A stretch of DNA of 63,707 bases, filler included, from Candidatus Hydrogenedentota bacterium (GCA_040752395.1; 4 parts of 4 records of this genome joined end to end with filler, not necessarily neighbours in it), one strand, 5' to 3'; shown: positions 13,758-46,750, counted from the whole stretch's first letter. The notes: generated by a model not told the origin, from the sequence alone. Numbers and translations: made by a program.

Positions 13758-13925
13758 TCATGAGCGTGGTTTTCACTCTACACTATTGGGTTATTGGGTT
13801 ATTGCGTTTTTGCGCTCTACTCTACAATTAAAAATTAAAAATTAGAAAACAGGAGACAGGAGACAGACTTCTTGCCTCTTGCTTCTACTTGATATTATTA
13901 TAGTTACAATGTTTTTCAGAGGAGG
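13758..13925 (+). repeat. Mosaic heptamer repeat copy ending in the terminal/RBS module
   Basis: TCATGAGCG, (TTATTGG)n, (AGGAGAC)n, CTTGATATTATTATAGTTACAATGTTTTTCAGAGGAGG. Confidence 0.9.
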
Positions 13926-13933
13926 TATTTTTT

Positions 13934-14563
13934 ATGTTTGAGATCGAGGGTATAAAATTTTACTGGCTGGGACACGCTTCATTTAGAATTGAAGCCCAGG
14001 GACTTCTGGTATACTTAGACCCGTATAATGTCAAAGATTATAAAGCTGATGCTGATATTATACTCATAACTCATAACCACTATGACCATCTGAGCCTACA
14101 GGATATAAATAGATTAAAGAAATCTGATACTTCTATTGTTTTACCTGAATTTGATAAGGGATCTATCTCTGGTACTAATCTTGTCTACCTAAAACCAGGG
14201 GCTTCAATTGTGGTAAAAACAATCAATATCGAGGGTGTCGCTGCTTATAATACAAATAAAGCATTCCATCCTAAAAATAATAACTGGCTCGGCTATATTG
14301 TAAATATAAGCAACAAACGTATATACCATGCTGGAGATACTGATGTTACAGCTGAAATGAAAAATCTACAAAATATAGATATAGCATTGCTGCCGGTTGG
14401 CGGGACCTATACTATGACTGCTAATGAAGCTGCACTGGCTGCAAATACATTGAAACCGAAATATGTTGTTCCGATGCACTGGGGCAGTATTGTTGGTAGT
14501 AAGAATGATGCTCTGTCTTTTAGTAAGCTTGTTAAGGATTCAAAAGTAATAATGCCTCAATAA
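13934..14563 (+). CDS. MBL-fold metallo-hydrolase
   Basis: WLGHASF, THNHYDH, YHAGDT, PMHWG. Confidence 0.9.
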   Translation: MFEIEGIKFYWLGHASFRIEAQGLLVYLDPYNVKDYKADADIILITHNHYDHLSLQDINRLKKSDTSIVLPEFDKGSISGTNLVYLKPGASIVVKTINIEGVAAYNTNKAFHPKNNNWLGYIVNISNKRIYHAGDTDVTAEMKNLQNIDIALLPVGGTYTMTANEAALAANTLKPKYVVPMHWGSIVGSKNDALSFSKLVKDSKVIMPQ

Positions 14564-14709
14564 TCACATCTTACTTTTGCAAATAATTCATCGCGTTTCT
14601 CACAGGAATCAAGCAGTGTCTCGATAAAATCAAAGAATGTGGGGCTATCTTTTTCAATAAAACATTTGAGAGCTGAATATTTAATTATCTCGTCTCTTAA
14701 ATTTTTCAC
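14557..14709 (-). CDS. Small 50-aa hypothetical protein (not in the ORF track)
   Basis: GGGAGG-5nt-GTG start at the repeat terminus; MKNLRDEIIKYSALKCF...VRCDY. Confidence 0.4.
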   Translation of the reverse strand: MKNLRDEIIKYSALKCFIEKDSPTFFDFIETLLDSCEKRDELFAKVRCDY

Positions 14710-14714
14710 GATAT

Positions 14715-15050
14715 CCTCCCTTCGAAAAACTTGAGTAACTCTAATAATTTCACGAAGTAAGAAGTAAGAAGTATCAGGACAGGCTACAGGCTACGGACTA
14801 CAGCCGGCTGGAGCCAAAAGCCAAAAGCCTGCTGAAAAGTCTTGAGTCTTGAGTCTCGAGTCCTGTTTTGACTCACGACTCACGACTCTTTTCATATCAT
14901 CTTTAATATTATTATCGGCAAAATATTATGTAAACTTGATGATAGTACTCTCCTTCCCTACCATTATTCACTTACACTGCTTCTTGCCTCTTTCGTTATC
15001 TTTCTTTTCCGTTATCTGTCTCATGCTTCTTCATTCCACCTATAACTGAG
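14715..15050 (-). repeat. Mosaic heptamer repeat copy (terminal variant, B and C modules, then further modules at 14977-15050)
   Basis: CAGGCTAC..CAGCCGGCTGGAGCCAAAAGCC and GAGTCTT/GACTCAC modules shared with 23632 and 32865. Confidence 0.9.
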
Positions 15051-15220
15051 AACATGTGAAAAAATTAGACTTTTTTAGAAAATGGGGACTGATAATAAAA
15101 AAGTTAGCAGGTATTAATGTTGATTATTTCACACGTTAAGAATTTGTAAAAATTCTTTACACGAGGGGATAATTTTGATTAATATATGAAATTATTAAAT
15201 GAATCAGGAGGCGAATTGAA

Positions 15221-15466
15221 ATGTCAGTATCAATAAAACAAAAAATGCATTTATATGTAGAGAAAAATAATAAGAGATGTGGCGGCGTGCCTGTAATAAA
15301 GGGAACGAGAATACCTGTTACGATCATTATTAAACACTATAAATCAGGAATGTCCATAGAAGATATTCTTGAAGGATATCCAAACTTAAAACCATAATAT
15401 ATTTTTGATGCACTAAGTTACTATTATGATAACAAAGATGAAATTGAAAAAATATTAGCACAATGA
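15221..15466 (+). pseudogene. DUF433 antitoxin with an internal TAA (15395-15397)
   Basis: CGGVPVIKGTRIPV...GMSIEDILEGYPNLKP*YIFDALSYY. Confidence 0.8.
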
Positions 15467-15516
15467 ATATTAAATTATATCTCGATGAAGATGTTCATAA
15501 TTTTATTTGCTTTTAG
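15463..15516 (+). pseudogene. Truncated DUF5615/PIN-like toxin N-terminus
   Basis: MNIKLYLDEDVH then stop; ATGA overlap with DUF433. Confidence 0.65.
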
Positions 15517-15585
15517 TATATTAGTAAGGCTATATATTACGATATAGTACCTTACAAATAAAATCTTGACATTTTCAGCAAAAAT

Positions 15586-15710
15586 ATTTTACCACTGAAA
15601 CACAGAATTACTGAAACACGGAATATTTTTCTGTATTTCAATAAAATTCAATCCGATAATGCTGGAATGATCCTGTGTCTGGTGTTTTTCCGATTATTCC
15701 GTGGTAAAAT
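15586..15710. repeat. Palindromic element with 8-9-nt periodic arms
   Basis: ATTTTACCAC...GTGGTAAAAT termini; CACTGAAA/CACGGAAT units versus TTCCG units. Confidence 0.55.
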
Positions 15711-15762
15711 TTTTCCCGATTTATTCGGGTTAGGAACACATAATTTATATAAATAGATAATA

Positions 15763-16510
15763 ATGGACACTAAGAAATATTTTTTAAAATTAAAAAATGT
15801 CAAGATAGAAAAAGAAGTGCCACTCTCATATTATACTACATTCCGAATTGGCGGGGCAGCAGATTTATTAATAAAAGTTACTTCCCAAAAAGAACTCGTA
15901 GAAACTATCAATATTTGCAGAGAACATAATATACCCTTTATTATACTCGGTGGCGGTTCAAATGTCCTTATCAATGATAACGGTTTCCAGGGCGTTGTAA
16001 TACTCGATAGAACCTCTGATTATAGTTTTTACGACGAAATAGTTACAGCAAATAGTGGGACATTTTTTCGAAAGATAGCTTTTGAAAGCATCAAGCGAGG
16101 TTTAGAAGGTATAGAATTTGGCTGTTGTCTGTATGGTACTTTAGGTGGCGCTATCTATGGTAATAGCGGTGCTTATGGTAAGAGTATCGGTGATGTTTTA
16201 ATAGAAGCAGAGATTTTAAAACCTGATGGTAAAATTGAACTCGTTGATAATAATTTTTTTCATTTCCAATATAGAGATAGCTCTCTTAAAACGAATCTCT
16301 GCGTTGTCTTGAGTGTAAAACTTAAATTACAAAAATCTGACCCGATAGTATTACTTACCAGAGTAAAAGAAGACATCGAAAAACGGCTTAATAGCCATCC
16401 GCAAAAAGAGGGTTCTGCTGGAAGCTACTTTAAAAATTTGCCATCATCGGTCCAGGGTGAACCCCGTATCCCAGCAGGTAAAATACTTGATGAACTTGGG
16501 GCTAGAGGGA
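15763..16510 (+). CDS. murB: UDP-N-acetylmuramate dehydrogenase, cut by a gap
   Basis: TTFRIGGAAD, GGGSNVL, SAGSYFKN. Confidence 0.93.
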
Positions 16511-16610
16511 NNNNNNNNNNNNNNNNNNNNNNNNNNNNNNNNNNNNNNNNNNNNTTAATTAATTAANNNNNNNNNNNNNNNNNNNNNNNNNNNNNNNNNN
16601 NNNNNNNNNN

Positions 16611-16729
16611 CATATCTTATATTCACTGACAAACTTGAAGAAATATTTAAAGAAATGAATTATAAAGAGAGAGACGTAAGTTTAACACACACTGATACTT
16701 GCGCTCAAGCAGTAGTTGTGTTTATTTAG
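16611..16729 (+). CDS. acpS: Holo-ACP synthase C-terminal fragment after the gap
   Basis: Manual translation ..YLIFTDKLEE...DVSLTHTDTCAQAVVVFI*. Confidence 0.65.
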
Positions 16730-16977
16730 AAGCAAGATAACGAAAGAAGCAAGAGGCACAAAGGCACAAAGGATGAAAAACTGAAGATGATATGAAAAGA
16801 GTCGTGAGTCAAAACAGGACTCGAGACTCAAGACTCAAGACTTTTCATAGGGAGCTCCAGCCGGCTGTAGTCCGTAGCCTGTAGCCCGTCCTGACACCTC
16901 TCACTTCTTCCGTTATCTTGCTTCTTGCTTCTTGCTTCTACTTGATATCATTAGAGTTACAATGTTTTTCAGAGGAG
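16727..16977 (+). repeat. Mosaic heptamer repeat copy with nested inverted arms, ending in the RBS module
   Basis: AGAAGCAAGATAACG...CGTTATCTTGCTTCT outer arms enclose GGCACAA, C and B modules. Confidence 0.92.
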
Positions 16978-16985
16978 ATAGTAGT

Positions 16986-17240
16986 ATGCTTGTTGAATAT
17001 ATAAACGAGGCATTGAGAAGGGCTGAATATAAGATGATAAATGATGATGAACCATTTTATGGAGAAATTCCGGTGTTGGAGGGTGTATGGTCTACCGGGA
17101 AAACACTTGAGGAATGCAGAAAAAATCTTATAGATGTTCTTGATGGATGGATTTATATCAGATTGAAGAAAGGATTGGATATACCTAAATTAGGGTCATT
17201 TAAAATAAGTGAATTAAAAAGGTTAAAAGTTAGTGCCTAA
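16986..17240 (+). CDS. hicB: HicB-family antitoxin (start corrected to 16986)
   Basis: FYGEIPVLEGVWSTGKTLEECRKNL; the upstream ORF extension is repeat-derived. Confidence 0.85.
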   Translation: MLVEYINEALRRAEYKMINDDEPFYGEIPVLEGVWSTGKTLEECRKNLIDVLDGWIYIRLKKGLDIPKLGSFKISELKRLKVSA

Positions 17241-17454
17241 GTTTTCAGCTGTTAAGTGGATAGACCTTATAAAACGGTTACGAAAATTAGGATTTGAGGG
17301 TCCTTATCGCGGTGGGAAGCATCCATATATGATAAAAGACGATTTAGTATTGACGATCCCCAATCCTCATAAAAAGGATGTATCTATAGATTTACTTACA
17401 CAGATACTTCGTCGGGGCAATATAAAACAAAACGAATGGATTGATACCGAATAG
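17233..17454 (+). CDS. hicA: HicA-family toxin
   Basis: LRKLGFEGP..GGKH, IPNPH. Confidence 0.85.
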   Translation: MPKFSAVKWIDLIKRLRKLGFEGPYRGGKHPYMIKDDLVLTIPNPHKKDVSIDLLTQILRRGNIKQNEWIDTE

Positions 17455-17541
17455 ATAAAATAAAAATTTCGTTTTGACAGGATATGGAAAACGATATATT
17501 TTTAGATGTTATAAAACAGATATTGTGCATCGGGTAACAAA

Positions 17542-18123
17542 ATGGTTGAGAAGAAACGAAAGACAAAAGAGACAGAAATAAAAGTAAAAATTGAGTTATA
17601 TGGTAAAGGTAAAAGTGAGATTAATACGGGTATAGGTTTTTTTGACCATATGCTCGAAATTTTTGCGAAACATTCGTTTGTTGATTTATTTGTTTGGGCA
17701 AGCGGTGATAAAAAAGTTGATAGTCATCATATAATTGAAGACGTGGGGATTGTAATAGGGAAAAGTATTGATAAGGCTCTTGAGGAGCGAAGAGGCATAC
17801 GCAGATTTGGGTTTGCAGCTGTGCCGCTTGATGACGCATTAACACTCATAAGTATAGATCTTGGGAATAGGGCTTATCTTAAATTTGATGCAGATTTACC
17901 TAAACTTAAACTTGGCGAGTTCGATGTAGAGATGACTAAAGAGTTTTTTCAAAGCTTGAGTAATAACGCTAAAATGACTCTACATATAAAACTATTACAA
18001 GGTGAGAATACTCATCATTGCATAGAATCTATATTTAAATCATTTGCAAAAGCTTTTGAGATGGCAATTACAAAAGAAAAGAGGATCCAGGGTGAGGTAC
18101 CAAGCACAAAAGGACTCTTATGA
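17542..18123 (+). CDS. hisB: Imidazoleglycerol-phosphate dehydratase
   Basis: TGIGFFDHML, DSHHIIED, NTHHCIES, PSTKG. Confidence 0.96.
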   Translation: MVEKKRKTKETEIKVKIELYGKGKSEINTGIGFFDHMLEIFAKHSFVDLFVWASGDKKVDSHHIIEDVGIVIGKSIDKALEERRGIRRFGFAAVPLDDALTLISIDLGNRAYLKFDADLPKLKLGEFDVEMTKEFFQSLSNNAKMTLHIKLLQGENTHHCIESIFKSFAKAFEMAITKEKRIQGEVPSTKGLL

Positions 18124-19106
18124 TTGGTATCGAAGTAATTGGTATTTCAAAAAATTTTAAAGATATAAAAGCTGTTTGTGATGTCTCGTTCAGTATAGAT
18201 ACAGGTGAGATAGTAGGTTTTCTTGGACCAAATGGTGCAGGCAAAACTACTACTATGCGCATCCTTACTACCTATCTTAAACCTGATAAAGGAACTGCTA
18301 AAATCAAAGGGTTTGATATAATAGACGATTCAAAAGAAGTAAGAAAGAGAATAGGCTATGTACCTGAAAACGCCGCGTTATATGAAGAAATGAGCGTTAT
18401 TGAATATTTAGAATTTGTTTGTAGTCTGCGCGGTATTTCTAATAATCAAAGAAAAGAGAGAATAAAAAATGTTATTGATAGATGTGGTCTGGAAGAAGCA
18501 ATACAAAAATTTGTAGGCGAATTATCCAAGGGCTACAGACAAAGACTATGTCTTGCTCAAGCATTGATACATAATCCAGAAATACTTATTTTTGATGAAC
18601 CAACGCACGGGCTTGACCCAAAACAGATTATAGAAATAAGGGGACTCATAAAAGAGATAGGCAGAGAAAAAACAATAATATTATCAACACACATAATGCA
18701 GGAAGTTACAGCATGTTGTAGTAGAGTTATAATAATAAACAGAGGTGAGATACTGGCAACTGGCAGACCTGATGAATTATCAGCACAGATTTACGGCGGC
18801 AGGGTGATAAACGTTATTTTGACGAAAGAGACACCAACAGAGATTCAGTTTGAGTTTGAAAAGATAGCGTCTGTGAAGAATGTTATAAAGAAGGAACATA
18901 TTGATGGGTGGCTTTATGAGATTGTATCTGAGAAGGATATAGAGACAAGAAGAGCTATTTTTGAGATAGTGAGAAGCAAAAACGCCACATTGCTTGAATT
19001 AACTGCGAAAAAGAGAGAATTTGAGGATATCTTTCTTGAGATTATAAATGGACAGAGTGATCCCTCGGAACGTAAGAATTCTACCGAAGACAGAGAGAAT
19101 ACCTGA
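18120..19106 (+). CDS. ABC-2 ATPase (GldA-like)
   Basis: GPNGAGKTT, LSKGYRQR, DEPT. Confidence 0.88.
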   Translation: MIGIEVIGISKNFKDIKAVCDVSFSIDTGEIVGFLGPNGAGKTTTMRILTTYLKPDKGTAKIKGFDIIDDSKEVRKRIGYVPENAALYEEMSVIEYLEFVCSLRGISNNQRKERIKNVIDRCGLEEAIQKFVGELSKGYRQRLCLAQALIHNPEILIFDEPTHGLDPKQIIEIRGLIKEIGREKTIILSTHIMQEVTACCSRVIIINRGEILATGRPDELSAQIYGGRVINVILTKETPTEIQFEFEKIASVKNVIKKEHIDGWLYEIVSEKDIETRRAIFEIVRSKNATLLELTAKKREFEDIFLEIINGQSDPSERKNSTEDRENT

Positions 19107-19111
19107 CAGAA

Positions 19112-19822
19112 ATGAGAAACAGTTTAATTATTGCAAAACGTGAATTGATGTTATTTTTTAATTCTATAGTTGCGTATATTTTTCTTTTTGTATTCTTAGG
19201 GTTTAGCTACTGGTTTTTCTTTAGAGGATTTTTTTATTATGCTCAAGCTGAGATTTTAGAGATGTTCAATGTATTACCATGGTCATTTTTTGTATTTATT
19301 CCTGCAATAACAATGCGTGCGTTTGCTGAAGAAAAAAGATCAGGAACAATTGAGATTTTGATGACGTATCCTGTAACAGAGTGCGAGTTCGTTTTTGGTA
19401 AATTCCTGGCTGTTGTTATATTTATAGGTATCACCTTGATACTGACGCTGCCTCTTTTTGGTATGATCTGTTATCTTGGAGACGTTGATGAAGGCAGAAT
19501 TTTATGCGGATATTTTGGTAGCTTACTTCTTGGCGCTTCGTATGCTTCTTTAGGCTTATTTGCTTCAAGTCTTACAAAAAATCAGGCTGTGGCTTTTATT
19601 TTAGGATTAATTTTTTGTTTCGTATTTATGATAATAGGTGAGGATATTGTCAGAGTAACATTAAAGGGTAAATTACAGGAAGTTTTATATGAGACAGGGC
19701 TTATCCGAAGGTTTGATAGTATGAAACGCGGGGTTATAGATTCAAGAGATATTGTCTTTTATTTTTCATTTATAGGATTTTTTTATTATCTGACTTTTAG
19801 ACAGATGACAAAAAGTGAGTAA
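19112..19822 (+). CDS. ABC-2 permease (GldF-like)
   Basis: AITMRAFAEEKRSGTIE, RGVIDSRD. Confidence 0.85.
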   Translation: MRNSLIIAKRELMLFFNSIVAYIFLFVFLGFSYWFFFRGFFYYAQAEILEMFNVLPWSFFVFIPAITMRAFAEEKRSGTIEILMTYPVTECEFVFGKFLAVVIFIGITLILTLPLFGMICYLGDVDEGRILCGYFGSLLLGASYASLGLFASSLTKNQAVAFILGLIFCFVFMIIGEDIVRVTLKGKLQEVLYETGLIRRFDSMKRGVIDSRDIVFYFSFIGFFYYLTFRQMTKSE

Positions 19823-19825
19823 ACG

Positions 19826-21388
19826 ATGAGACGATACCAGTGGATTATCTCAATAATATTAGTTCTTGGTATTATAATTCTTATAAATATTTTAGGGGGT
19901 GAGTATTTTTTTAGAATAGATTTAACAGAAAATAAAGAATATACGTTATCTTCTTCATTTAAAAAAATCATAACATCAACAAAAGACAGGGTTATAATTA
20001 AAGCATATTTTACAGAAGACCTGCCATTTTATTTTGCAGGTATAAAACAAAGGGTTCGTGATTTTTTAGAAGAGGTAAGGATATTATCTAAAGGTAATAT
20101 AACCTATACTTTTATTGACCCGTCAAAAAATACCGAGTATCAAAGCCAGGCAAATTCATCAGGCGTACCTGAAGTCGCAGTCAATTATATTGATAGAGAT
20201 AAAGCCGAGATAAAGAAGGTTTATTTCGGGCTTTGTATGCATTATGAGGATAGACGCGAAGCGATACCGGTTATCAGAGATGTTGAGGGGATCGAATATG
20301 AGTTTGCAATATCTTTAACGAGATTGTTACAGACCGAGAAACCCAAAGTATCGTTTCTTACAGGCGTTAAACAAGAAGATATAGAATATGAGGATATCCA
20401 GGGACTGGTTGAAGAATTAAGTAAAACATATACAATAAACTGGACATCGCCGGAAAGTAAGATTGATAAAAAGGTTAAAACCTTAGTTGTAATCAAAAAT
20501 AAGGATATCACTGACAAAACATTATTTAATATTGACCAGTTTATAATGGAAGGAGGTAATGTTATTTTTTGTGTATCAGGGATGGATGGTCCACCGCAGA
20601 ATATTTTTGCATCAAGAACCGAGAATAAATTGCAGGGGTTGTTAGAATACTATGGGATAAAAGTTAATAATAATTATATTGTTGACAAATCCTGTGTTCC
20701 TGTCTCGTTTTATGCAGGATATTTTAGTGTGACTGTAACTTATCCGTTTTATATAAAGATAATACCAACTTTTAATGATAAAGCGTGGGGGTTTAATAAA
20801 AGTGTTGCCTCAGTATCAGGACTTGAGTCCCTGATACTGCCCTGGGTTTCATCAGTTACTACCTCGGATACAGAATTACTGACTGATGTGCTTGTTTACT
20901 CAACGCCTTATGCAGATGCGATGGCAGGCTTTGTTAATTTAAATTATCAGCAGGATTTTAATCTTGAATTAAAAGAAGATACTTATGCGCTTGGACTTAT
21001 TTGTCGTGGAAGGGTTAGCTCGTATTTCAAAGACAAGGAGAATATTTACAATATACCAGTTGATGATTATAAAAATAAAAAAGATTGTTCAGAAACTACA
21101 AATATCGTGGTTATAGGTACCGAGCATTTTATTCTTGATAGGATTATTAAAATGTATAATGAGAATTTATATTTTATTAACAATATTATAGACCAGCTTA
21201 CACTTGGTTGTGACCTTATTTCTATAAGGTCTAAACAGATTGTAAATAGACCAATCAAAGAATTAGAAGAGAAAGAAAAAAATATTATAAAATATTCGAA
21301 TATGATAGGGGTACCATTGTTAATAGTTGTGGCTGGTATAATGAGATATATTTTAAGAAAAATAAGGGTTAGAAAGAGCAAAATATGA
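19826..21388 (+). CDS. GldG-like ABC auxiliary protein
   Basis: RIDLTENKEYTLS, IDQFIMEGG, IRSK..RP, terminal TM segments. Confidence 0.82.
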   Translation: MRRYQWIISIILVLGIIILINILGGEYFFRIDLTENKEYTLSSSFKKIITSTKDRVIIKAYFTEDLPFYFAGIKQRVRDFLEEVRILSKGNITYTFIDPSKNTEYQSQANSSGVPEVAVNYIDRDKAEIKKVYFGLCMHYEDRREAIPVIRDVEGIEYEFAISLTRLLQTEKPKVSFLTGVKQEDIEYEDIQGLVEELSKTYTINWTSPESKIDKKVKTLVVIKNKDITDKTLFNIDQFIMEGGNVIFCVSGMDGPPQNIFASRTENKLQGLLEYYGIKVNNNYIVDKSCVPVSFYAGYFSVTVTYPFYIKIIPTFNDKAWGFNKSVASVSGLESLILPWVSSVTTSDTELLTDVLVYSTPYADAMAGFVNLNYQQDFNLELKEDTYALGLICRGRVSSYFKDKENIYNIPVDDYKNKKDCSETTNIVVIGTEHFILDRIIKMYNENLYFINNIIDQLTLGCDLISIRSKQIVNRPIKELEEKEKNIIKYSNMIGVPLLIVVAGIMRYILRKIRVRKSKI

Positions 21389-22323
21389 AGAGTCGTGAAT
21401 TAAACAGGATAAAGATACTTTTTATTATATTTGTAATACTTTTTGGTGGCGTGCTTTTTGTAAAATTGAATAAAAAAGAATATATAAATCCGGATTATGC
21501 AAAAAAAATATTAGAAAAAATATCGGCTTTTACTGAAACAGAAACTCTTAAAATAACATTTGTAAATCAATATGATTCTAAAATTATTATTGTTCGACAA
21601 AATGATAATTGGGTTATACGTGATAAAGAAAATTACCCTGTTGAAAAAGAAAGTATAAAGAATTTCTTTATTGAGTTAGAGAAGATAAAAAGAGGGGATC
21701 TGGTATCAGAAAAAAAAGAGAATTTTTACAAATATGAGCTGGAAGAAACACAAGTCACCAGCATAATATTAGAATCAGCTAAAGATAAAATACACGTGAT
21801 TGTGGGTAAGAGAGGTTCGTATGCAGGAAGTAATTATATTAGAATAAAAGAAGAACCCTATGCGCTTTTGGTACCCTCTTCCTTGAAAATGTTTACTGAT
21901 AAAACTTTGAGAGAGTGGTATAAAAAACAGATAACCGATTTTAACCCCAGAGAAATAACTGAATATAAATTATCAAAAGATCAAAAAGAGATATTTTATT
22001 CAATAAGAATGGATACAGGATGGAACATAGTAGTGAACGAGGTTAAAAAAGATACTCAATCATTACAGGTCGCTATTGAGGCTTTATCTTTATTAAGAGC
22101 TATGGATGTTTATGTAGGAGATGAACTATCATTAACTGAAGCAGAACTTGATAAACCTTTATACACGATTCAATTTAAATCTGTTGCTGGCAGAGATACT
22201 ATATATATAGGAAAAGAAATAGAAACAGTGCGATATATAAAGCTTGATAGTATAAAAAACATTATATTTAAGGTCTCTAATTATACAATAAAACAGATTA
22301 TCCTTAAAGAAAATCCCCGATAA
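21385..22323 (+). CDS. DUF4340-like membrane-anchored protein
   Basis: N-terminal TM and duplicated domain; usual fourth gene of Gld-like ABC operons. Confidence 0.65.
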   Translation: MKSRELNRIKILFIIFVILFGGVLFVKLNKKEYINPDYAKKILEKISAFTETETLKITFVNQYDSKIIIVRQNDNWVIRDKENYPVEKESIKNFFIELEKIKRGDLVSEKKENFYKYELEETQVTSIILESAKDKIHVIVGKRGSYAGSNYIRIKEEPYALLVPSSLKMFTDKTLREWYKKQITDFNPREITEYKLSKDQKEIFYSIRMDTGWNIVVNEVKKDTQSLQVAIEALSLLRAMDVYVGDELSLTEAELDKPLYTIQFKSVAGRDTIYIGKEIETVRYIKLDSIKNIIFKVSNYTIKQIILKENPR

Positions 22324-22431
22324 TATTACAATTACATCGAATAATATCCAGTAATTAATAGGTATAAACAAATCTTTTATAAATGACGATAATATTAATG
22401 TAGGGTATCCTATCACTTAGCGACATTATTT

Positions 22432-22567
22432 CGAATGTCGAATTGCAAATTGAAGTTAGAGGCACAGAGGCACAAAGGTAGAAAGAAGACAGGAGACAGA
22501 AGACAGAGGCACAATGTAGTGAGGGTCACAAGACCCGTAGTAGGCAAATAAATTTACAATTTGCAAT
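22432..22567 (+). repeat. Mosaic heptamer repeat copy (AATTGC outer arms, GGCACAG, GAGACAG, GGGTCACAAGACCC hairpin)
   Basis: Modules shared with 26030-26186. Confidence 0.85.
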
Positions 22568-22599
22568 GGAGTGAAGGACAATAGGGAGGAGGTGTTAAA

Positions 22600-22863
22600 A
22601 TGGACTTCAATATCAATAATCCAAATTATTCAATAAACTCTGATATATCCAATCAATATTTGCAGATAAATGAAGGATCTAATAAAGATAATAAAGAGGA
22701 AAAGAAATACGAAGTAAAGGATGTTGAAGTTTCCGAGGAATTTAAAGTTAACCCCGAAGATTTAGTTATAAAAGAGAGCGTAGTAAGAAATATAATTAAT
22801 TTAGCAGCTCATATTCCGCCTGAAGAAAATAAAGATAATAAAAGTGTAGATATTTTCAGTTAA
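22600..22863 (+). CDS. Small acidic hypothetical protein
   Basis: Strong GGAGGAGG RBS, 87 aa. Confidence 0.6.
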   Translation: MDFNINNPNYSINSDISNQYLQINEGSNKDNKEEKKYEVKDVEVSEEFKVNPEDLVIKESVVRNIINLAAHIPPEENKDNKSVDIFS

Positions 22864-22929
22864 GATTAATTGCTGTAGGGGGCTGGGGGCCCGGCTTAAT
22901 GTTTGCTCTACTTCGAGATATCTGCGGAA

Positions 22930-23622
22930 TTAATAAGAAAACTTACCTACCTCTACCTTACTTTCCTGATATTCAATAATTCTTGGGCCATCATTTGTCT
23001 CAATAAAGATTACCTGAATACAGTTTTTAGGTTCAGATATGACGAGTAATTTGTTTCCATCAGGTGATATACCAAACCCTGCTTTGCCTGTGAAATCACC
23101 CTGTATCACTTTAATGACTTCATAATCTTTTGTTTTATCTTTAACTGGTTTAGCTATAAACAATTTTGAGAGATTATTTTCGCTAAAATGTACAGCTATT
23201 AGCGAGGAGCCTTCTTTTATCTTTTCTGGAGTCAGTGGTTTATCACTCAGATAGCTATTAATTATCTCTTCTATATTTTTTATTTTTTCTTCTTTTATTA
23301 TATCATATCTTGTAGGAACTCCACCAAATGCTTTAACGACATCAGGGTCAGAGGCTGCTTCGAGTGGGAGCATTTCTTTTCTTTCAATAACCTCGAGATA
23401 TTTTATTTCGGTATCAGAAATCCATGAGGGTTCAGTTCTTGTTATAGTAGTTGTAATGGTAGTATCGTACTCTTCAGGAGCAAAGATGATATATATAAGA
23501 AATACCAATCCCACAGCTATTATTGCTGCTATGATAATGTAAATAATTGAAGATTTTTTTTCTTTTTCCGGTTCTTGTTGTTCGGGTGTTTGAGAAACCT
23601 GTTCTTTAATTTCTTCTGGCAT
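22930..23622 (-). CDS. Membrane-anchored hypothetical protein
   Basis: Single TM, Thr-rich linker, RBS from the repeat terminus. Confidence 0.7.
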   Translation of the reverse strand: MPEEIKEQVSQTPEQQEPEKEKKSSIIYIIIAAIIAVGLVFLIYIIFAPEEYDTTITTTITRTEPSWISDTEIKYLEVIERKEMLPLEAASDPDVVKAFGGVPTRYDIIKEEKIKNIEEIINSYLSDKPLTPEKIKEGSSLIAVHFSENNLSKLFIAKPVKDKTKDYEVIKVIQGDFTGKAGFGISPDGNKLLVISEPKNCIQVIFIETNDGPRIIEYQESKVEVGKFSY

Positions 23623-23631
23623 AATTAAATA

Positions 23632-23913
23632 CCTCCTCTGAAAAACGCTGTAACTCTAATAATTCGGGGTACAGGCTACGGACTACGGACTACAGCCGGC
23701 TGGAGCCAAAAGCCAAAAGCCTGCTGAAAAGTCTTGAGTCTCGAGACCTGTTTTGACTCACGACTTGCGACTCACGACTCTTTTCATATCATCTTTAGTT
23801 TTTCATATATTGTGTAGAGCGCAAACCGCGCTCATGAGTACCACTTTGAAAAACTTTGTAACTCTAATAATATCAAGTAGAGGCAAGAAGCAAGATATGA
23901 CAAGTTAAAAGTA
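23632..23913 (-). repeat. Mosaic heptamer repeat copy containing two terminal modules (T-B-C-D-T-A)
   Basis: GAAAAAC..TGTAACTCTAATAAT at about 23640 and again at about 23848. Confidence 0.92.
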
Positions 23914-23945
23914 GAGATTAAATAAATTGTAATATTTTTATAAAT

Positions 23946-25295
23946 TTAATCAAGAACTTTTATTAAAAAAAATCTTGAGTTTTGATATACGATTTTATCT
24001 TTAAAAAATTTTAGTACCGGGCTTGTATCATAAAGAATAAGCAAATCAACAGGGTATCCGTATATAAGTCCTGGCCATTCTTCGAAAAAATAATAGATTC
24101 TGACATAATCTTTCATCAATTTTTCGCCATATAAATCAGCCCTGCCATCAATAAAGACCCTCTTTTGAGGATGAAATTGAAAGATAAGAAACCCACAAAG
24201 ACCATAATCTGAAAATATATTTTCTCCAGGGGTTTCACGCACCTTTTGAATAAATTCGTTTGGGGGATAATAATATGGATTATATGAGTAAGTGTTAAAA
24301 CTTAAAATAACAGCAATGATAAAAGAGATAAGAAAAAAGATGCTCGGGTTATGAGTAATTTGATTAATCCTATCCGTAACCTTGAAATACTCTCTGTCTG
24401 GTAAAAAATTTAAGATAAAAATATAACAACACGCGGCAAATGGTAGGTGTCGGACTGATGTTATACCAAGATAGATTGTTAAAATGGTGATTACAAAAAG
24501 AGGTAGAAAGTTTTTTAATCTCTTAATATTTATTAAATAGAAAACAAAGATAAAAACAGAGATTATGTAAAAATATGGATACTCTTTAAAAGTTGTAGGA
24601 AACCATTCCATTATGAAAGTAGAATGTATTGTCTTACCCACATACTGGAAAGGATAGATATATAATGAAAGAAAATGGGGATTTATAATGGGGCTAAGAA
24701 ATGAGAGTAAATAGATAACAAGGGGCTTTAGTTTGAGTTTCCTTTGTAATAAATCATAACCTCCATAGACCGCTATGACCACAAGTCCTAAAATAAAACT
24801 GCCATGTATATTAGCCCATAGAAGTGTTATTACGGGAAGCGAGGTTATTTTTCTTATTTCAAGAAGAAATAGTAATAAAAAGAAGAGATAAAATGATATA
24901 AGATGTGGTCTTAAAGTAAAGGTTCTCCCAGCTAAAAGAAGCCATAATAAAACAGCGACTGCTACAATAAGTTTATCTTTTTTTCGAAAAAGGATAAAGA
25001 TTAAGGCGGGGATGCCGGTGATAAGCAATGATTTAAAAAGAATCAAAAGTTTATAGCCACCGATTTTATATAAAGAATATACAATGATACCAAAAAACGG
25101 CTCATGATAGAGCCAGTCAGCGCCATATTTTGTAAAGGAGAATATATCTTTGTATAACATCTTTAAAGAAGTGATTATTTCGCGGCCAGCTGCTAAATGC
25201 CAGAAAAGGTCACAAGCCTCAAGGGGTTTGATTGATATTATAAGAACAAGGGAGAGTATAAGTTGAGATATATCAGGGAAAAAGTATTTTTTCAT
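23946..25295 (-). CDS. Polytopic membrane protein, GT-C-like
   Basis: DLFWHLAAG, LRPHL, LWANIHGSF, INP, IMEW, FIDGRADLY. Confidence 0.7.
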   Translation of the reverse strand: MKKYFFPDISQLILSLVLIISIKPLEACDLFWHLAAGREIITSLKMLYKDIFSFTKYGADWLYHEPFFGIIVYSLYKIGGYKLLILFKSLLITGIPALIFILFRKKDKLIVAVAVLLWLLLAGRTFTLRPHLISFYLFFLLLFLLEIRKITSLPVITLLWANIHGSFILGLVVIAVYGGYDLLQRKLKLKPLVIYLLSFLSPIINPHFLSLYIYPFQYVGKTIHSTFIMEWFPTTFKEYPYFYIISVFIFVFYLINIKRLKNFLPLFVITILTIYLGITSVRHLPFAACCYIFILNFLPDREYFKVTDRINQITHNPSIFFLISFIIAVILSFNTYSYNPYYYPPNEFIQKVRETPGENIFSDYGLCGFLIFQFHPQKRVFIDGRADLYGEKLMKDYVRIYYFFEEWPGLIYGYPVDLLILYDTSPVLKFFKDKIVYQNSRFFLIKVLD

Positions 25296-25360
25296 TCAAT
25301 ATTATTATTTACTTAAAATTTAATATTGCAAGAAAATTTTAAAGTGTAGTATACTGATCA

Positions 25361-25452
25361 AGAGTTCGAAGCTCGGAGTTTGGAGTTAGTATTACGGGCT
25401 TCTAACTTCGAAAAATACGAACCCTGAACTTCGAACTCCGAACTTCTGACTT
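25361..25452. repeat. Heptamer-armed palindrome (GAGTTCG versus CGAACTC)
   Basis: 7-nt periodic AGTT/AACT cores. Confidence 0.75.
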
Positions 25453-25474
25453 TTTTCTTAGGGGAAGAATTATT

Positions 25475-26014
25475 TTGACTACATATCCAGGTGATGATAG
25501 ACGCGAGGAAATAAGATATAAATGCTTGATACCGGTTGAGGTATGGGTTGAGGATGGTAATATTGCTGCTGTGCTTAATGAATGTATTATGGTCGATATA
25601 AGTGATAATGGTATGCGCATATCAACTAAAACTGATTTTTCGCCTGTTCCGATTGGAATCTTTATGGGCCAGATTTTTAGAATAGCTGTAATGCATCAGA
25701 AGACAGGCGTTTTTACTGCATGGTGCAGACCCGTATGGGTTCAGAAAAAAGAGAAGATTTTTGAGATGGGGCTTGTGATACTTAGAATGGAAAAAGAATC
25801 AAGGGACGTTCATAGAAAATTAGTAGATTATCTTGCAGAGGAACAAATCCTGAAAACAGAGATAAAAATAATAGATAAACTTAAAAAACAGTTTGAAAAT
25901 TATTACTTAAAATACAGACTGGTTATTAAAAAAAAGAGGATAAAGGCACTGGTTATAATTATATTGAGTATGATTATAGTACTTTTGCTTTTAAAATCAG
26001 TAGCTATTATTTAG
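25475..26014 (+). CDS. PilZ-domain protein with C-terminal TM
   Basis: RREEIR (RxxxR) and DISDNG (DxSxxG). Confidence 0.75.
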   Translation: MTTYPGDDRREEIRYKCLIPVEVWVEDGNIAAVLNECIMVDISDNGMRISTKTDFSPVPIGIFMGQIFRIAVMHQKTGVFTAWCRPVWVQKKEKIFEMGLVILRMEKESRDVHRKLVDYLAEEQILKTEIKIIDKLKKQFENYYLKYRLVIKKKRIKALVIIILSMIIVLLLLKSVAII

Positions 26015-26029
26015 TAACCCATTAGTTAA

Positions 26030-26186
26030 AGAAAGATAACGAAAGAAGCAAGAAGCACAAAGGCACAAAGGCACAGAGGCACAGAGGCACAGAGTAGTGA
26101 TGGTCACAAGACCCGTAGTAGACTGAGGGGATATCAAAAAGCAAGAGGCAAGATAGGTGTTCGAATTGCAAATTGGAAATTGCAAA
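26030..26186 (+). repeat. Mosaic heptamer repeat copy filling the intergenic space before dprA
   Basis: AAGATAACGAAAGAAGCAAG, (GGCACA[A/G]A)n, GGTCACAAGACCC, (AATTG)n. Confidence 0.88.
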
Positions 26187-27266: not shown

Positions 27267-27271
27267 GACAG

Positions 27272-27364
27272 TTATTTTTCAGTTTCTGACATCCCACTTA
27301 AAACAGCAATGTCTTTCAGATTCTTTTCCTGATGTTTTTCAATATAAATCTGTTTTCTTATCAT
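27272..27364 (-). pseudogene. Truncated RHH/CopG-type antitoxin remnant
   Basis: GGAGG RBS; MIRKQIYIEKHQEKNLKDIAVLSGMSETEK*. Confidence 0.5.
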
Positions 27365-28002: not shown

Positions 28003-28024
28003 GTTATAAATACCGATGTTTTAT

Positions 28025-28683: not shown

Positions 28684-28938
28684 AGGCACAAAGGCACAAA
28701 GTTTTTTGAGGCTCTATTATTACGAACTTCTAAGTTCTAACTCCTATCTTTTTCATACTTTGTGTAGAGCGCAAAAACCCAAAAACGCAATAACGCAATA
28801 ACCCAATAACCCAATAGTGTAGAGCGCAACCCGCGCTCATGAGTACTCCTTTGAAAAACATTGTAGCTCTAATAATATCAAGTAGAAGCAAGAAGCAAGA
28901 AGCAAGATAATGAAAAAAGTAAGAAGTAAGAAGTGAGA
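28684..28938 (-). repeat. Mosaic heptamer repeat copy (GGCACAA, CCAATAA run, D-T-A modules)
   Basis: TGTAGAGCGCAACCCGCGCTCATGAGTACTCCTTTGAAAAACATTGTAGCTCTAATAATATCAAG. Confidence 0.92.
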
Positions 28939-29117
28939 ATAACTGCACACCTATCACCAAACACCGAACATAAGAACCCCACTACAAGACAGGTGGGATA
29001 CGATTTAGCTATTAGATTTATTATTAGAAAAAAAGTCCAAAAAAAATATTAGAAAATTTTGTTGACAAGAGAAGGGATTTTATCTTTTAAGTATGTTTCA
29101 GGTTTTATAAAGAGTAA

Positions 29118-32818: not shown

Positions 32819-32864
32819 AGTAATATGTTTGGTTATGATGATATGAAAAAATAAGAAATGAAAG

Positions 32865-32976
32865 TATGAAAAACTAAAGATGATATGAAAAGAGTCGTGA
32901 GTCAAAACAGGACTCGAGACTCAAGACTTTTCAGCAGGCTTTTGGCTTTTGGCTCCAGCCGGCTGTAGTCCGTAGC
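32865..32976 (+). repeat. Mosaic heptamer repeat copy (C, B modules) truncated by the contig end
   Basis: Closely matches modules at 16774-16880 and, reverse-complemented, 23685-23806. Confidence 0.9.
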
Positions 32977-33218: not shown

Positions 33219-33292
33219 TTTCTTGCTCCTTAGCTTCTTTTTTGATACTTCTCACTTCTTACTTCTTGTTTCTTCACCACCTATAACCGAAG
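33219..33292 (+). repeat. Degenerate mosaic repeat copy (ACTTCTT run, CCACCTATAAC module)
   Basis: Shared with 14977-15050 and 34265-34300. Confidence 0.65.
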
Positions 33293-34151: not shown

Positions 34152-34369
34152 TTTTGCGCTCTACACAACGTATGAAAAACTAAAGATGATATGTTGGCTT
34201 CAGGCTCCGGGCTTCGGGCTCCAGCCAGCTGTAGTCCGTAGCCTGTGGCCTGTAGCCTGTCCTGATACTTCTCACTTCCCACTTCTTACTTCTTACTTTT
34301 TTCGTTATCTTGCTTCTTGCCTCTTGCTTCTACTTGATATTATTATAGTTACAATGTTTTTCAGAGGAG
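34152..34369 (+). repeat. Mosaic heptamer repeat copy ending in the RBS module
   Basis: Near mirror image of 46533-46715. Confidence 0.92.
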
Positions 34370-34787
34370 CGATATAATGAGAATCAGGTTTCAAGAAACA
34401 ACCGCAGAAATAAACGGAAATAATAAGAAAAGGGATAAAGATTACGAAGAAAGAATCATATATAAAAGAGTGCCTGCTTTTTTAGGTATAGGCTATAATT
34501 TACAAGCAGTATATACAAAGAATTTCAAGTAACTGACCAGTCGGCCAGTTTTTCGGCNNNNNNNNNNNNNNNNNNNNNNNNNNNNNNNNNNNNNNNNNNN
34601 NNNNNNNNNNNNNNNNNNNNNNNNNNNNNNNNNNNNNNNNNNNNNNNNNNNNNNNNNTTTTTCACAGGTTCACACTTATACGTGGGGAAGAAGTAAAGAA
34701 CACAGAAGATTGATGGGATGTAAAATAGATTAACTTTTCCTTGACTTATAAAATAAGAAATTTAGTATTTTAATACTGGAAGAAAAA

Positions 34788-42846: not shown

Positions 42847-42852
42847 AGTTAT

Positions 42853-42998
42853 CTCCTCTGAAAAACGCTGTAACTCTAATAATTCGGGGTACAGGCTACA
42901 GGCTACGGACTACAGCCGGCTGGAGCCAAAAGCCCGGAGTTTGTGCCTCTGTGCCTCTGTGCCTTTCCTTTGAATCTTTCAATCTTCCAATTTTTCAA
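42853..42998 (-). repeat. Mosaic heptamer repeat copy whose terminus forms the NCS1 RBS
   Basis: T and B modules nearly identical to 23633-23715, then TGTGCCT and CAATCTT runs. Confidence 0.92.
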
Positions 42999-43003
42999 TA
43001 CAA

Positions 43004-45082: not shown

Positions 45083-45107
45083 AATTTAAGACACAACGGC
45101 ACAAAGG

Positions 45108-46520
45108 CTAAGGCGCTAATCTGTCAGCATTATCATCGTCTTTACCATCGTCTTTAAATAAAGTATAAAGACCGAATTTTTTTAGCTTCTCTCTTAATGT
45201 TTTACGAGTTATACCAAGAATCTCAGCTGCCTTAATTATTTTACCATCTGTCTCTTCAAGAGTTGCTTTTATAAGTCTTTTCTCCATCTCCTCTATAGAA
45301 TCACCAACACTTAAAAGAACGCTCCTTGCTTTTGGCGAGAACGTGAATAAATCCATAGCCTCCTGTATGTGTTTAAGAGTTATATATTTATCCTCAGCTT
45401 GACTCATAACTACTACGCGCTCTATAAAATTTTCGAGCTCCCTGACGTTACCAGGCCAATTATAATCCATAAGTATTTTTAAAGCTCGCTCTTCAACGTT
45501 TTCAATCGCTCTTCCAAATCGTTTGTTCATTATCTCGATAAAATGGGTTATAAGAAGAGGGATGTCTTCTTTATGTTCTCTAAGTGGAGGAATAAATACA
45601 GGTAAAACATTTAAACGATAAAACAGGTCTTTTCTAAACAGATTTTTTTCCATCGCTTCCTCAAGATTTACATTTGTTGCTGTTATGATCCTGGCATTTA
45701 ATTTGATTGGTTCAGTGCCACCGATCCGGGAAAACTCTTTTTCCTGGATAACTCTTAATAGTTTTGACTGCAGATTATAGGGCATTGTTCCGATTTCATC
45801 CAGAAAGACAGTGCCATCCTCTGCTAATTCAAATTTTCCAGGTTTAGACGATATAGCACCTGTGAATGAACCCTTCTCAAAACCAAATAATTCAGACTCA
45901 AGTAGTGTCTCGGGAATGGCACTTGTATTAACCGCAATGAATGGCTTGTTATATCTATTACTATTAAAATGTATAACCCGCGCTATAAGTTCTTTCCCTG
46001 TACCACTCTCACCACGTAATAAAACAATAGTATCCGTGTTGATGATTTTCTGAAGCAGAGAGAGTACCGGTTCCATAATTTTTGAACACGTGACTATTTT
46101 ATTAAAAGAATATTTTTCTTTTAATTCTTCTTCAAGCAATAACACCTTTTTACTTGCTTCAAGTGAATCAATAGCTCTGTCAATGGTTATTTTAATCTCA
46201 TCTATGTCAAAAGGTTTTACAATATAGTCATATGCTCCGAGTTTCATACATTTAACAGCACTCTTTGCATCCTGATTGGCTGTTATCATTATGACCTTGC
46301 ATTCCGAGTCAAGTTTCTTTATCACAGAAAGCGCAGTAAAACCATCCATCTCAGGCATACGTATATCAAGTAATACAATATCAGGTTTAAAACTCTGCAG
46401 TTTTTTTATACCCTCGTTACCGGAAAGCGCAACTTTTACTTTATAGTAAGAAGAAAGAAATTCATCTAACATATCAGTTACAAACGGGTCATCGTCAATT
46501 ACAAGAATTTTGTGTGACAT
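45108..46520 (-). CDS. Sigma-54-dependent response regulator (NtrC/AtoC family)
   Basis: Receiver domain, GESGTGKE, GSFTGA, WPGNVREL, Fis HTH. Confidence 0.94.
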   Translation of the reverse strand: MSHKILVIDDDPFVTDMLDEFLSSYYKVKVALSGNEGIKKLQSFKPDIVLLDIRMPEMDGFTALSVIKKLDSECKVIMITANQDAKSAVKCMKLGAYDYIVKPFDIDEIKITIDRAIDSLEASKKVLLLEEELKEKYSFNKIVTCSKIMEPVLSLLQKIINTDTIVLLRGESGTGKELIARVIHFNSNRYNKPFIAVNTSAIPETLLESELFGFEKGSFTGAISSKPGKFELAEDGTVFLDEIGTMPYNLQSKLLRVIQEKEFSRIGGTEPIKLNARIITATNVNLEEAMEKNLFRKDLFYRLNVLPVFIPPLREHKEDIPLLITHFIEIMNKRFGRAIENVEERALKILMDYNWPGNVRELENFIERVVVMSQAEDKYITLKHIQEAMDLFTFSPKARSVLLSVGDSIEEMEKRLIKATLEETDGKIIKAAEILGITRKTLREKLKKFGLYTLFKDDGKDDDNADRLAP

Positions 46521-46532
46521 AGATTTAATAGT

Positions 46533-46750
46533 CTCCTCTGAAAAACTTTGTAACTATAATAATATCAAGTAGAAGCAAGAAGCAAGATAACGGAAGAAGT
46601 GAGAGGTATCAGGACAGGCTACAGGCTACGGACTACAGCCAGCTGGAGCCAAAAGCCCGGAGCCTGAAGCCAACATATCATCTTTAGTTTTTCATATATT
46701 GTGTAGAGCGCAACCCGCGCTCATGAGTACTCCTTCGAAAAACTTCGACT
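46533..46750 (-). repeat. Mosaic heptamer repeat copy (T-A-B-D-partial T) spanning the whole intergenic region
   Basis: Runs from the PBP1A stop codon to the RBS of the regulator. Confidence 0.92.

Follow-up and report, generated by a model that had tools for sequence, protein, structure and literature searches.

A polar, modular intergenic repeat that ends at gene starts in a draft genome of Candidatus Hydrogenedentota

The window analysed here is a 63.7-kb stretch of DNA from the draft genome of a Candidatus Hydrogenedentota bacterium (GCA_040752395.1; 2.84 Mb in 349 contigs, 93.8% complete). Its positions 1-16510 are contig C283, and the remainder consists of further contigs of the same draft. 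An earlier interpretation made from the DNA without database searches (the sequence-only reading) had noted at least 13 intergenic copies of a dispersed mosaic repeat between 13758 and 46750; module profiles and motif searches confirm that one mosaic family is present at all 13 sites. The family is a lineage-specific, polar, modular intergenic repeat, for which we use the term ‘gene-start cassette’. Its modules follow a linear order that ends at the start of a gene, and the copies are not circular permutations of a template.

The contigs of the window are chained by linkers of the form N44-TTAATTAATTAA-N44 (N runs at 16511-16610, 32977-33076 and 49432-49531), and gene order across these points is not biological. 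An extra gap of 100 N lies at 34558-34657, and two contig junctions run through repeat copies. The neighbouring genes are housekeeping genes, namely hisB, topA, a GidA-family gene, dprA, a class A penicillin-binding protein gene and der, along with ABC transporters, a histidine kinase and a sigma-54 response regulator; the genes served have no common function. As the sequence-only reading had stated, no transposase adjoins any copy in the gene annotation of the window, and there are no CRISPR-like unique spacers.

Modules and copies

Genome-wide, the family occupies 1005 regions, or 4.5% of the draft, and 14-mers that occur at least 12 times account for 4.8% of the assembly. A 31-nucleotide (nt) core of module T has 351 matches in the genome at up to three mismatches, compared with none for a reversed-pattern control. 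Frequent k-mer segments of the genome fall almost entirely into one connected component (1855 of 1910), and the modules E8, E and G were counted in the same network for this reason. The most frequent modules are T (396 copies at E <= 0.01; 453 at E <= 10), A (385), B (354), C (243), Ct (202), D (175) and E8 (160), followed by the rarer A2 (87), H (80), G (61), t2 (51), J (29) and I (23). The five modules first described (T, A, B, C and D) are thus real, and at least one of them is found at 11 of the sites, but the full set comprises at least 13, and the copies at 22432 and 25361 carry only E8/E and G, respectively.

Searches for the family outside this genome were negative. Module T is found in none of 40 compared genomes, which are kin only at the domain level, and a 23-nt T pattern has no matches in metagenome contigs. 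A TopA search for relatives returned identities of at most 50%, to Bacillota, Cloacimonadota, Ignavibacteria, Aquificota and others, and 44 loci chosen on the basis of TopA (273,620 nt) contain no cassette module and no perfect array of 6-8-nt units.

Module T is 31 nt long, reads ATTATTAGAGTTACAAYGTTTTTCAGAGGAG in the direction of the gene and ends in GGAG, whereas t2 is a T-like box of 15 nt (TTTTTCGAAGGAG) and not a full T. D is a simple GC stem (GAGCGCGGTTTGCGCTC) that can be expanded by TATTGGGT octamers, and its hairpin begins 9 nt from the left edge of the module. B, C and G form hairpins; their arms consist of tandem heptamers, with a complementary core of 4-5 nt (GGCT/AGCC, GAGTC/GACTC and GAGTT/AACTC). 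Together with D, these modules are imperfect palindromes linked by conserved linkers, and the GC-rich B contains GTAG. At least nine types of array unit occur, each in a fixed place (TTGCTTC, GGCTTTT/GTAGCCT, GAGTCGT/GACTCAA, CGAACTC, TTTTAAC, GATTGAAA, AGGCACAA and TATTGGGT). The left end of a cassette (H or D) is unrelated to the right end (T), so that the two are not inverted copies, and between them lie two to four internal hairpins.

The copies in the window are listed below; a prime (A', E8') marks inverted orientation, and E is a separate hairpin module outside the master order given in the next section. In several copies the annotated modules span slightly less than the whole copy: 14718-14880, 22460-22543 (E8-E), 25366-25409 (G), 26053-26121 (E8-E8-E, with an A-type stretch at 26029), 28684-28938 (E8/G/D/D/T/A/A2), 32867-32976, 33243-33267 (A2), 42853-42992 and 46533-46744.

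13752..13924, plus strand: D hairpin, TATTGGGT octamers, (ACAGGAG)n, (TTGCYTC)n and T, which ends 9 nt upstream of ATG 13934 (beta-lactamase-fold gene).
14718..14888, minus strand: C-B-A2-T in gene direction; T ends 8 nt upstream of GTG 14709 (50-amino-acid open reading frame (ORF), 14557..14709).
16729..16977, plus strand: A'-E8-Ct-C-B-A2-A-T, starting just past a contig junction; T ends 8 nt upstream of ATG 16986 (UPF0150 gene).
22436..22543, plus strand: E8 octamers (AGAGGCAC), AGACAGA heptamers and an E hairpin (GGGTCACAAGACCC), ahead of a small ORF that has a GGAGG of its own; the five modules first described are all absent.
23633..23914, minus strand: (J)-(TTGCYTC)n-T with a decayed Shine-Dalgarno (SD) sequence, then D-Ct-C-B-T; the last T ends 10 nt upstream of ATG 23622, and the copy holds one of the 18 T-to-D junctions of the genome.
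25361..25446, minus strand: in a divergent spacer, a G-type hairpin whose arms are built of GAGTTCG / CGAACTC heptamers.
26029..26121, plus strand: inverted A, E8 octamer array (5.5 units) and E hairpin, between the stop of a PilZ gene and GTG 26157 (dprA).
28684..28942, minus strand: A2-A-T-D (with octamers)-partial G-inverted E8; what comes after T is D and not a gene.
32861..32976, plus strand: Ct-C-B, cut by the contig end (N linker from 32977).
33219..33274, plus strand: A/A2-type heptamer arrays (TTCTTAC / TTCTTGC), 35 nt upstream of ATG 33309 (RNA methyltransferase gene).
34153..34369, plus strand: decayed D, then Ct-B-A2-A-T, with C skipped through a stereotyped Ct-B junction; T ends 7 nt upstream of ATG 34377.
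42853..42999, minus strand: H-E8-B-T, making up the whole 157-nt spacer (42847-43003) from a histidine-kinase stop (43004) to ATG 42846 (permease gene).
46533..46750, minus strand: t2 box-D-Ct-B-A2-A-T, spanning the spacer from the stop of the penicillin-binding protein gene (46750) to 12 nt upstream of ATG 46520 (sigma-54 response regulator).
52392..52445, plus strand: a further copy, outside the range covered by the sequence-only reading; J module ((TTTTAAC)n..TTGTCATAGGAGG) abutting an ORF that starts at 52446.

Across the window, T ends 6-12 nt upstream of the starts at 13934, 14709, 16986, 23622, 34377, 42846 and 46520. Arrays of AGATGCA (4.9 units) and AGACAAG (2.1 units) also follow GAAGCAA units at 12693-12744, inside a 533-amino-acid ORF (12112..13713) without a Pfam match; either this ORF is over-extended or the repeat lies within a gene.

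Module order and position at gene starts

Toward the downstream gene, the modules follow a master order of about 480 nt, E8/H-I-J-G-t2-D-Ct-C-B-A2-A-T, and each copy is a collinear subset of it. The longest copy, 482 nt on contig C11, reads H-I-J-G-t2-D-Ct-C-B-A2-A-T. Among the adjacencies of the 13 modules genome-wide, 1214 run forward, 48 join a module to itself, 76 run backward and 105 involve inverted modules or module E. The backward steps include 35 restarts after T (T-D 18, T-A 6, T-G 5, T-B 2 and four single cases) and 19 H-E8 steps, the mutual order of these two modules being loose. The sequence-only reading was therefore right that the order is fixed while modules drop out, but the order is linear and not cyclic: D comes next after only 18 of the 396 T copies, and some other earlier module after a further 17.

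The impression of a cycle can be traced to the left edge of D, which consists of GGAG, 5 nt (TACTC, TCAAC, TCGTC and others) and ATG, immediately ahead of the GC hairpin, in 146 of 167 classifiable copies. This GGAG is preceded by unique sequence in 61 copies; in 69 it follows a T-like box (t2), and in 15 a full T. T and D appear to close a circle because D carries an SD and ATG edge of its own, which is sometimes supplied by T or a T-like box; this accounts for the closure more simply than circularly permuted copies would.

The mechanism proposed with that claim was that the copies are windows of a circular or tandem master, spread by rolling circle or through an RNA intermediate. It would account for the T or T-like boxes at both ends of some units, and for the series of copies, in which the 3' end (T) is constant while the 5' start varies. 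We nevertheless consider it highly improbable. Apart from the rarity of T-D junctions, restarts after T reach six other modules as well, and the 482-nt copy is linear, with H-I-J-G upstream of D, where the proposed cycle skips them. The skip junctions are internal and stereotyped and not just 5' truncations, and the 93.8%-complete assembly has no reverse transcriptase or HUH enzyme.

For individual copies, the module strings given earlier at 23632 and 28684 agree with the profiles, which yield T-B-C-Ct-D-T-J and a D-T-A stretch. The string T-A-B-D-T at 46533 is better read, in the same orientation, as T-A-A2-B-Ct-D-t2, its second T (46730-46744) being only a t2 box. The strand of the element had been read opposite to that of the gene served, and it was overlooked that T is the predicted ribosome-binding site of the downstream gene and that the whole element is oriented to that gene.

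An ORF of at least 60 amino acids begins within 25 nt downstream of 309 of the 396 T copies; a further 22 copies have an ORF of 30-59 amino acids there, and 65 have none. The distance from the end of T to the start codon is 4-12 nt in 262 of the 309 ORF-linked copies. Under the same ORF test, 12.7% of 20,000 random positions and 26% of 4306 AGGAG sites are followed by an ORF. Since T ends in GGAG just upstream of starts, we interpret it as the SD region and leader of the downstream gene, and we predict that it supplies this gene with a strong U-rich leader and a ribosome-binding site. The spacer and start codon that follow T are gene-specific, and only D has an ATG of its own.

After its SD and ATG, D opens a frame of 10 codons, or of 23, 31 or 32 codons when octamers are present. 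The TGA of this frame overlaps the next ATG (ATGA), and such an overlap recurs twice in Ct, for example on the minus strand at 46650-46745; the overlaps could form a chain of mini-ORFs or could be a coincidence in AT-rich sequence. D was rejected as a protein gene, because the length of the frame follows the number of octamers and no peptide is conserved.

The placement of modules in intergenic spacers was analysed with crude gene calls and with ORFs trimmed behind modules. Occurrences in convergent spacers (160) as against codirectional spacers (965) were 1 versus 92 for C, 4 versus 145 for B, 2 versus 73 for D and 8 versus 184 for T. Within codirectional spacers, the numbers in the same and opposite orientation to the genes were 180/4 for T, 72/1 for D, 79/4 for Ct, 86/6 for C and 129/16 for B; module A, unlike the others, is often inverted (122/51). 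T reaches 19 per 100 spacers behind a codirectional gene and 17.6 per 100 in divergent spacers, which have two starts each; counted per gene start, it is about twice as common in the former. Of 200 codirectional cases, 52.5% have the repeat starting no more than 30 nt from the stop codon upstream, so that such spacers are essentially all cassette, as at 42847-43003 and 46521-46749 in the window.

Polarity of this kind links all modules to the 5' side of genes and, together with the near absence from tail-to-tail spacers, rules them out as general terminators or REP-like stabilisers of 3' ends. A role of the hairpins as terminators of the upstream gene was likewise ruled out by the near absence of C, B and D from convergent spacers.

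The same observations bear on whether the family is an ordinary one of the REP/BIME type, or an assembly artefact of a draft metagenome bin. GC-rich imperfect palindromes with GTAG (module B) do occur in mosaic clusters, and the draft is fragmented at repeats, with 276 of 698 contig ends (about 40%) falling within the family. A REP/BIME family is contradicted by the strict polarity, the near absence from convergent spacers and the lack of a RAYT gene. As for an artefact, 710 of the 1005 repeat regions lie within contigs with unique flanks on both sides, and misassembly would not yield 309 T copies in a consistent register with ORF starts. Chiefly because of the contig-internal regions, we regard both explanations as very unlikely.

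The junctions between modules suggest how the cassettes might be transcribed. The A-T junction, which occurs in 215-225 of the 396 T copies depending on the junction classifier, matches the consensus of an extended -10 promoter (TGATATTAT) and may serve as one. The H-I junction, in a part of the cassette represented by 23 copies of module I, contains the promoter-like TTGAAA-17-TATATT, the best sigma-70-like match in the full-length cassette (minus strand 535-507 of the stretch C11:4880-5480); by its match to the consensus it could be a second sigma-70-like promoter. Hairpins B, C, G and D are predicted to be part of the downstream gene's leader or intercistronic RNA. A consensus scan of 13600-32976 gave 99 promoter-like sites with 82 expected and 13 terminator-like sites with 8.7 expected, and is not discriminating. 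No Rfam family matches the 482-nt master copy or the window, except for one tRNA.

Variation among copies and modes of spread

The arrays show a strong preference for two periods. Genome-wide there are 175 perfect arrays with three or more units at period 7 and 48 at period 8, with 4, 9, 0 and 0 at periods 5, 6, 9 and 10. Between the arms of one hairpin, unit numbers show no correlation (Spearman 0.03 for B, with 340 of 354 copies parsed, and -0.08 for C, with 232 of 243 parsed). Each arm thus gains and loses units on its own, the behaviour expected of slippage, and long symmetric stems are not preserved; selection keeping the hairpins symmetric was rejected on this ground.

Alternatively, the arrays may be sites where one or several global regulators bind to DNA or RNA, which would make regulation the chief role of the cassette, with the ribosome-binding module as a passenger. 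The preference for period 7/8, the nine or more unit types in fixed places and the polar position of the arrays upstream of gene starts would fit such a role, for which two published families offer analogues: the paired hepta- and octamer sites of Geobacter (PMC2700814) and the TAACTGA repeats before start codons (PMC4679880). Against it, unit number varies freely, and independently in the two arms; we found no candidate binding protein, and the genes in the window share no function. We therefore regard a regulator-binding role as possible but improbable, while noting that it is compatible with a gene-start cassette, to which it would add only a function.

Modules are skipped through a small number of recurring junctions. 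B is joined to T via GTACCCCGA, GTA(C/G)CCCGA, in 122 copies and Ct to B via ATGTTGGCTTCAGG in 45 copies, the D-A junction falls inside a common CGTTAT, and the skips E8-C and E8-Ct pass through the recurring CACAAAG(G/T)ATGAAAA. That the junctions are few and stereotyped implies that the rearrangements were rare, took place at short shared motifs and were then multiplied.

All modules show about the same uniformity among their copies, and T is not specially conserved (per-site consensus frequency 0.934 for T, 0.922 for D, 0.982 for C, 0.965 for B, 0.941 for G and 0.978 for I). The variation sits at a few sites with alternative states of intermediate frequency. Adjusted mutual information between variants of different modules is about 0. 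All four combinations are seen in 45 of 50 pairs of two-state sites (in 39 of these with two or more copies each), and even sites 5-14 nt apart reach an r2 of no more than 0.21. For the D spacer and D loop, 14 nt apart, the four counts are 12, 12, 10 and 8 (r2 0.003). Distances of 5-14 nt fit within one sequencing read, and at that scale the shuffling is thus no artefact of assembly. Shared but unlinked polymorphisms fit copies that exchange short patches, whereas a copy-and-paste burst from a few masters would give private mutations and linked subfamilies.

We propose that the family is a gene-start cassette of cis-acting parts whose diversity and spread could have come from three processes: slippage within the 7-8-nt arrays; rare deletions between short common joint motifs (TATGAAAA, CGTTATC and TTTTTCnnAGGAG), which would leave the few stereotyped skip junctions; and frequent exchange of short patches, that is gene conversion, among hundreds of copies, which would keep modules 92-98% uniform while shuffling their variants. 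We place the probability of this reading at roughly 0.6. Gene conversion was also among the routes of spread named in the sequence-only reading, and the 45 four-combination pairs argue for it; the rolling circle and RNA intermediate named beside it are at odds with the unlinked variants and with the lack of reverse transcriptase and HUH/Y1 enzymes in the 93.8%-complete assembly.

Several points weigh against the gene-start cassette as proposed. Transcription of the cassettes, promoter activity and SD use are all predictions. An argument for promoters from genomic context was dropped, as A-T and B-T junctions are alike in divergent and codirectional spacers (29/150 and 11/80 in divergent spacers; Fisher p = 0.36). 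Predicted RNA folds do speak for the proposal, being more stable in the gene sense than in the antisense for all four hairpin types (B -23.9 versus -21.4 kcal/mol; sense better in 271/353 copies of B, 49/60 of G, 150/242 of C and 143/162 of D), but this contrast rests on four module types and is a weak hint of a role at the RNA level, because the copies are not independent. The folds of two whole units are not exceptional (z -0.56 and -2.40). Linkage beyond about 100 nt could have been blurred by short-read assembly, given the contig ends in the repeat, and shuffling above 100 nt may be an assembly artefact; the unlinked variants at 5-14 nt could come from recurrent mutation at a few hot sites. 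Gene conversion does not explain the first arrival of a cassette at a cassette-free gene, which needs an illegitimate or enzyme-driven event, and in an assembly that is 93.8% complete the gene for such an enzyme could be missing.

We looked for signs of such an event. In 50 D..T elements, flanking 3-mers match in 2 (1.7 expected) and flanking 4-mers in 0, in agreement with the earlier remark that no clear target duplication is seen; without such duplications and without terminal inverted repeats, the elements are not miniature inverted-repeat transposable elements (MITEs). Together with the strict polarity and the lack of RAYT, this upholds the view that the family is no ordinary REP or MITE. 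The 93.8%-complete genome has no match to Y1/RAYT (PF01797), in a search whose control matched 6 of 14 known genomes, and none to reverse transcriptase (PF00078) or the TnpB zinc-ribbon domain; it does have three tyrosine recombinases (two complete genes and one broken). Of the full-length master and the linked enzyme that the sequence-only reading had suggested seeking, the first is found in the 482-nt copy and the second, as RAYT/HUH or reverse transcriptase, is not. A search among in-genome paralogues for filled and empty sites returned 32 duplicated stretches outside the cassettes and no informative pair, the sole candidate pair being 71% identical. A CRISPR array or integron was rejected, since unique spacers are absent, the genes are housekeeping genes dispersed over both strands, and the window's sole integrase-like ORF is a fragment located far from the copies.

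These results leave limited room for a non-autonomous mobile element that targets the SD. Here a ‘T-N3-C-ATG-D’-to-T unit would insert beside GGAG, leaving a GGAG at either side and hence landing at gene starts. Repeated insertions at one GGAG would stack, which would account for the fixed order and for the T-D and t2-D junctions; the enzyme would be of an unfamiliar kind, lost or missing from the assembly. Such insertion fits the left edge of D (GGAG, T..C and ATG in 146 of 167 copies, 61 with unique sequence before the GGAG) and the right edge of T, where GGAG is followed by gene-specific spacers. It also fits the D hairpin starting 9 nt from the left edge, subterminal hairpins being a feature of IS200/IS605-type elements. 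MIRUs have likewise been reported with flanking tetranucleotide direct repeats (PMC3184786). It does not fit the lack of Y1/RAYT, TnpB and reverse transcriptase in the assembly, the absence of a hairpin near the right end of T, or the H-type left edges, which follow stop codons without GGAG. Nor would copying of whole units predict fully shuffled variants. An SD-targeting element is, in our view, an unlikely explanation. A stronger version, in which the D-to-T unit is a new SD-recognising mobile element with its own SD, leader and maybe promoter, whose waves of insertion stack and are homogenised by gene conversion, seems slightly less probable again; if true, it would be DNA that propagates itself by capturing the start sites of translation.

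Related repeat families and significance

The closest published counterparts are the Neisseria REP2 and the Borrelia plasmid IR-A/IR-B repeats. Delihas (2011; PMC3184786) describes them as intergenic, without terminal inverted repeats and with two stem-loops, carrying a promoter, ribosome-binding site and ATG directly upstream of genes; their origin and mode of spread are given there as unknown, and Neisseria REP2 as having 23-26 copies of 120-150 bp. On this description, the cassettes resemble them in lacking terminal inverted repeats, in having internal stem-loops, in lying upstream of ORFs and in carrying a ribosome-binding site. They differ in being far more numerous (about 400 T copies in 1005 regions), in having a gene-specific spacer and start codon where REP2 includes the ATG, and in being a 13-module mosaic of up to 482 nt with hepta- and octamer arrays, a comparison that was made by description and not by sequence.

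Arrays of short units have other counterparts. Cyanobacterial STRR arrays consist of hairpin-forming tandem units of 7-8 nt in intergenic DNA. The ‘global regulator binding sites’ of Geobacter metallireducens are paired tandem hepta- or octanucleotides of 3-5 units on opposite strands (PMC2700814); they share with the cassettes hairpin-forming paired arrays of 7-8 nt, intergenic position, many copies and a function not known. Unlike these sites and the STRR arrays, the arrays of the cassette are modules of a larger ordered element with non-repetitive modules and a ribosome-binding end. In marine Beggiatoaceae, tandem TAACTGA heptamers precede the start codons of unrelated genes, essential ones included, with length steps of 7, and the arrays replace the SD and have no SD character (PMC4679880). 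The likeness lies in forward-oriented tandem heptamers directly upstream of start codons; the cassette, however, ends in a canonical GGAG, and its heptamers are different and mostly paired into hairpins. Cassette units match neither TAACTGA nor a listed Geobacter consensus (PMC2700814). Both the Geobacter and the Beggiatoaceae repeats were interpreted as regulator-binding arrays (PMC2700814, PMC4679880).

The BIMEs (REP clusters) of enterobacteria and the BOX elements of pneumococci are mosaic or modular short intergenic repeats with optional modules, BOX being thought to be mobilised by an insertion sequence, and the MIRUs of mycobacteria are intercistronic, transcribed with operons and contain small ORFs that overlap their neighbours, with 40-50 copies (PMC3184786). 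The modularity of BIME/BOX and the intercistronic placement of MIRUs resemble the cassette, as do the short GC-rich imperfect palindromes clustered with conserved linkers in REP/BIME (B, C, G and D of the cassette). The alternating orientation, the 3'-end and convergent bias and the RAYT link of BIME/REP, as there described, are not seen in the cassettes, and MIRUs do not supply a common 31-nt leader and SD. A search of full-text literature for repeats that supply an SD to many genes found only the REP2/IR, Geobacter, TAACTGA and BIME/BOX/MIRU families. By analogy, the cassette may be regarded as a gene-start repeat of the Neisseria REP2 type combined with heptamer-array hairpins, with a correspondingly putative function. 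It differs from the families described in scale (about 400 T copies, 4.5% of the assembly), in its ordered 13-module mosaic and in the measured shuffling.

We also noted features of the window and genome beside the cassettes. A small gene family of 5-6 copies (C291:10687-10965, C90:842-1105, C3, C298, C79 and C69) encodes proteins of 93-128 amino acids that start with MEWVITM and have one N-terminal hydrophobic stretch and a repetitive DVQ..SL region; the two copies read in detail, on C291 and C90, have T before and H octamers after them. A second dispersed repeat, outside the cassette family, is a 40-mer at about 8501-8540 in the spacer between a PIN-domain and an alpha-amylase-family gene, and is found on five contigs (including C5, C114, C137 and C190). 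The 3' part of a tRNA-Pro(GGG) and about 100 nt downstream of it are duplicated 3 kb further on (53095-53170, 53152-53272 and 56141-56264) as two exact blocks of 70 and 51 nt. Between the repeats are a DNA methylase gene and another, unknown gene, an arrangement that resembles a small island integrated at the tRNA. At 50682-51047 there is a broken integrase-like ORF. Two pairs of nucleotidyltransferase and HEPN-type (or substrate-binding) genes, at 1426-2108 and 27673-28366, resemble MNT-HEPN toxin-antitoxin modules.

The repeat family explains why this genome assembled poorly, and it can mislead gene callers on start codons. Its value is limited for now by an organism that is uncultured and without sequenced relatives. 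If the roles proposed here hold, one common leader and ribosome-binding site serves no fewer than one gene in eight (309 of about 2500 ORFs), a figure that is too low because 40% of contig ends fall within the repeat, and whole intergenic spacers are built from standard parts. The family would then be, to our knowledge, the most extreme natural case of copy-and-paste expression signals, and would offer a compact system for studying sequence exchange among dispersed short repeats.

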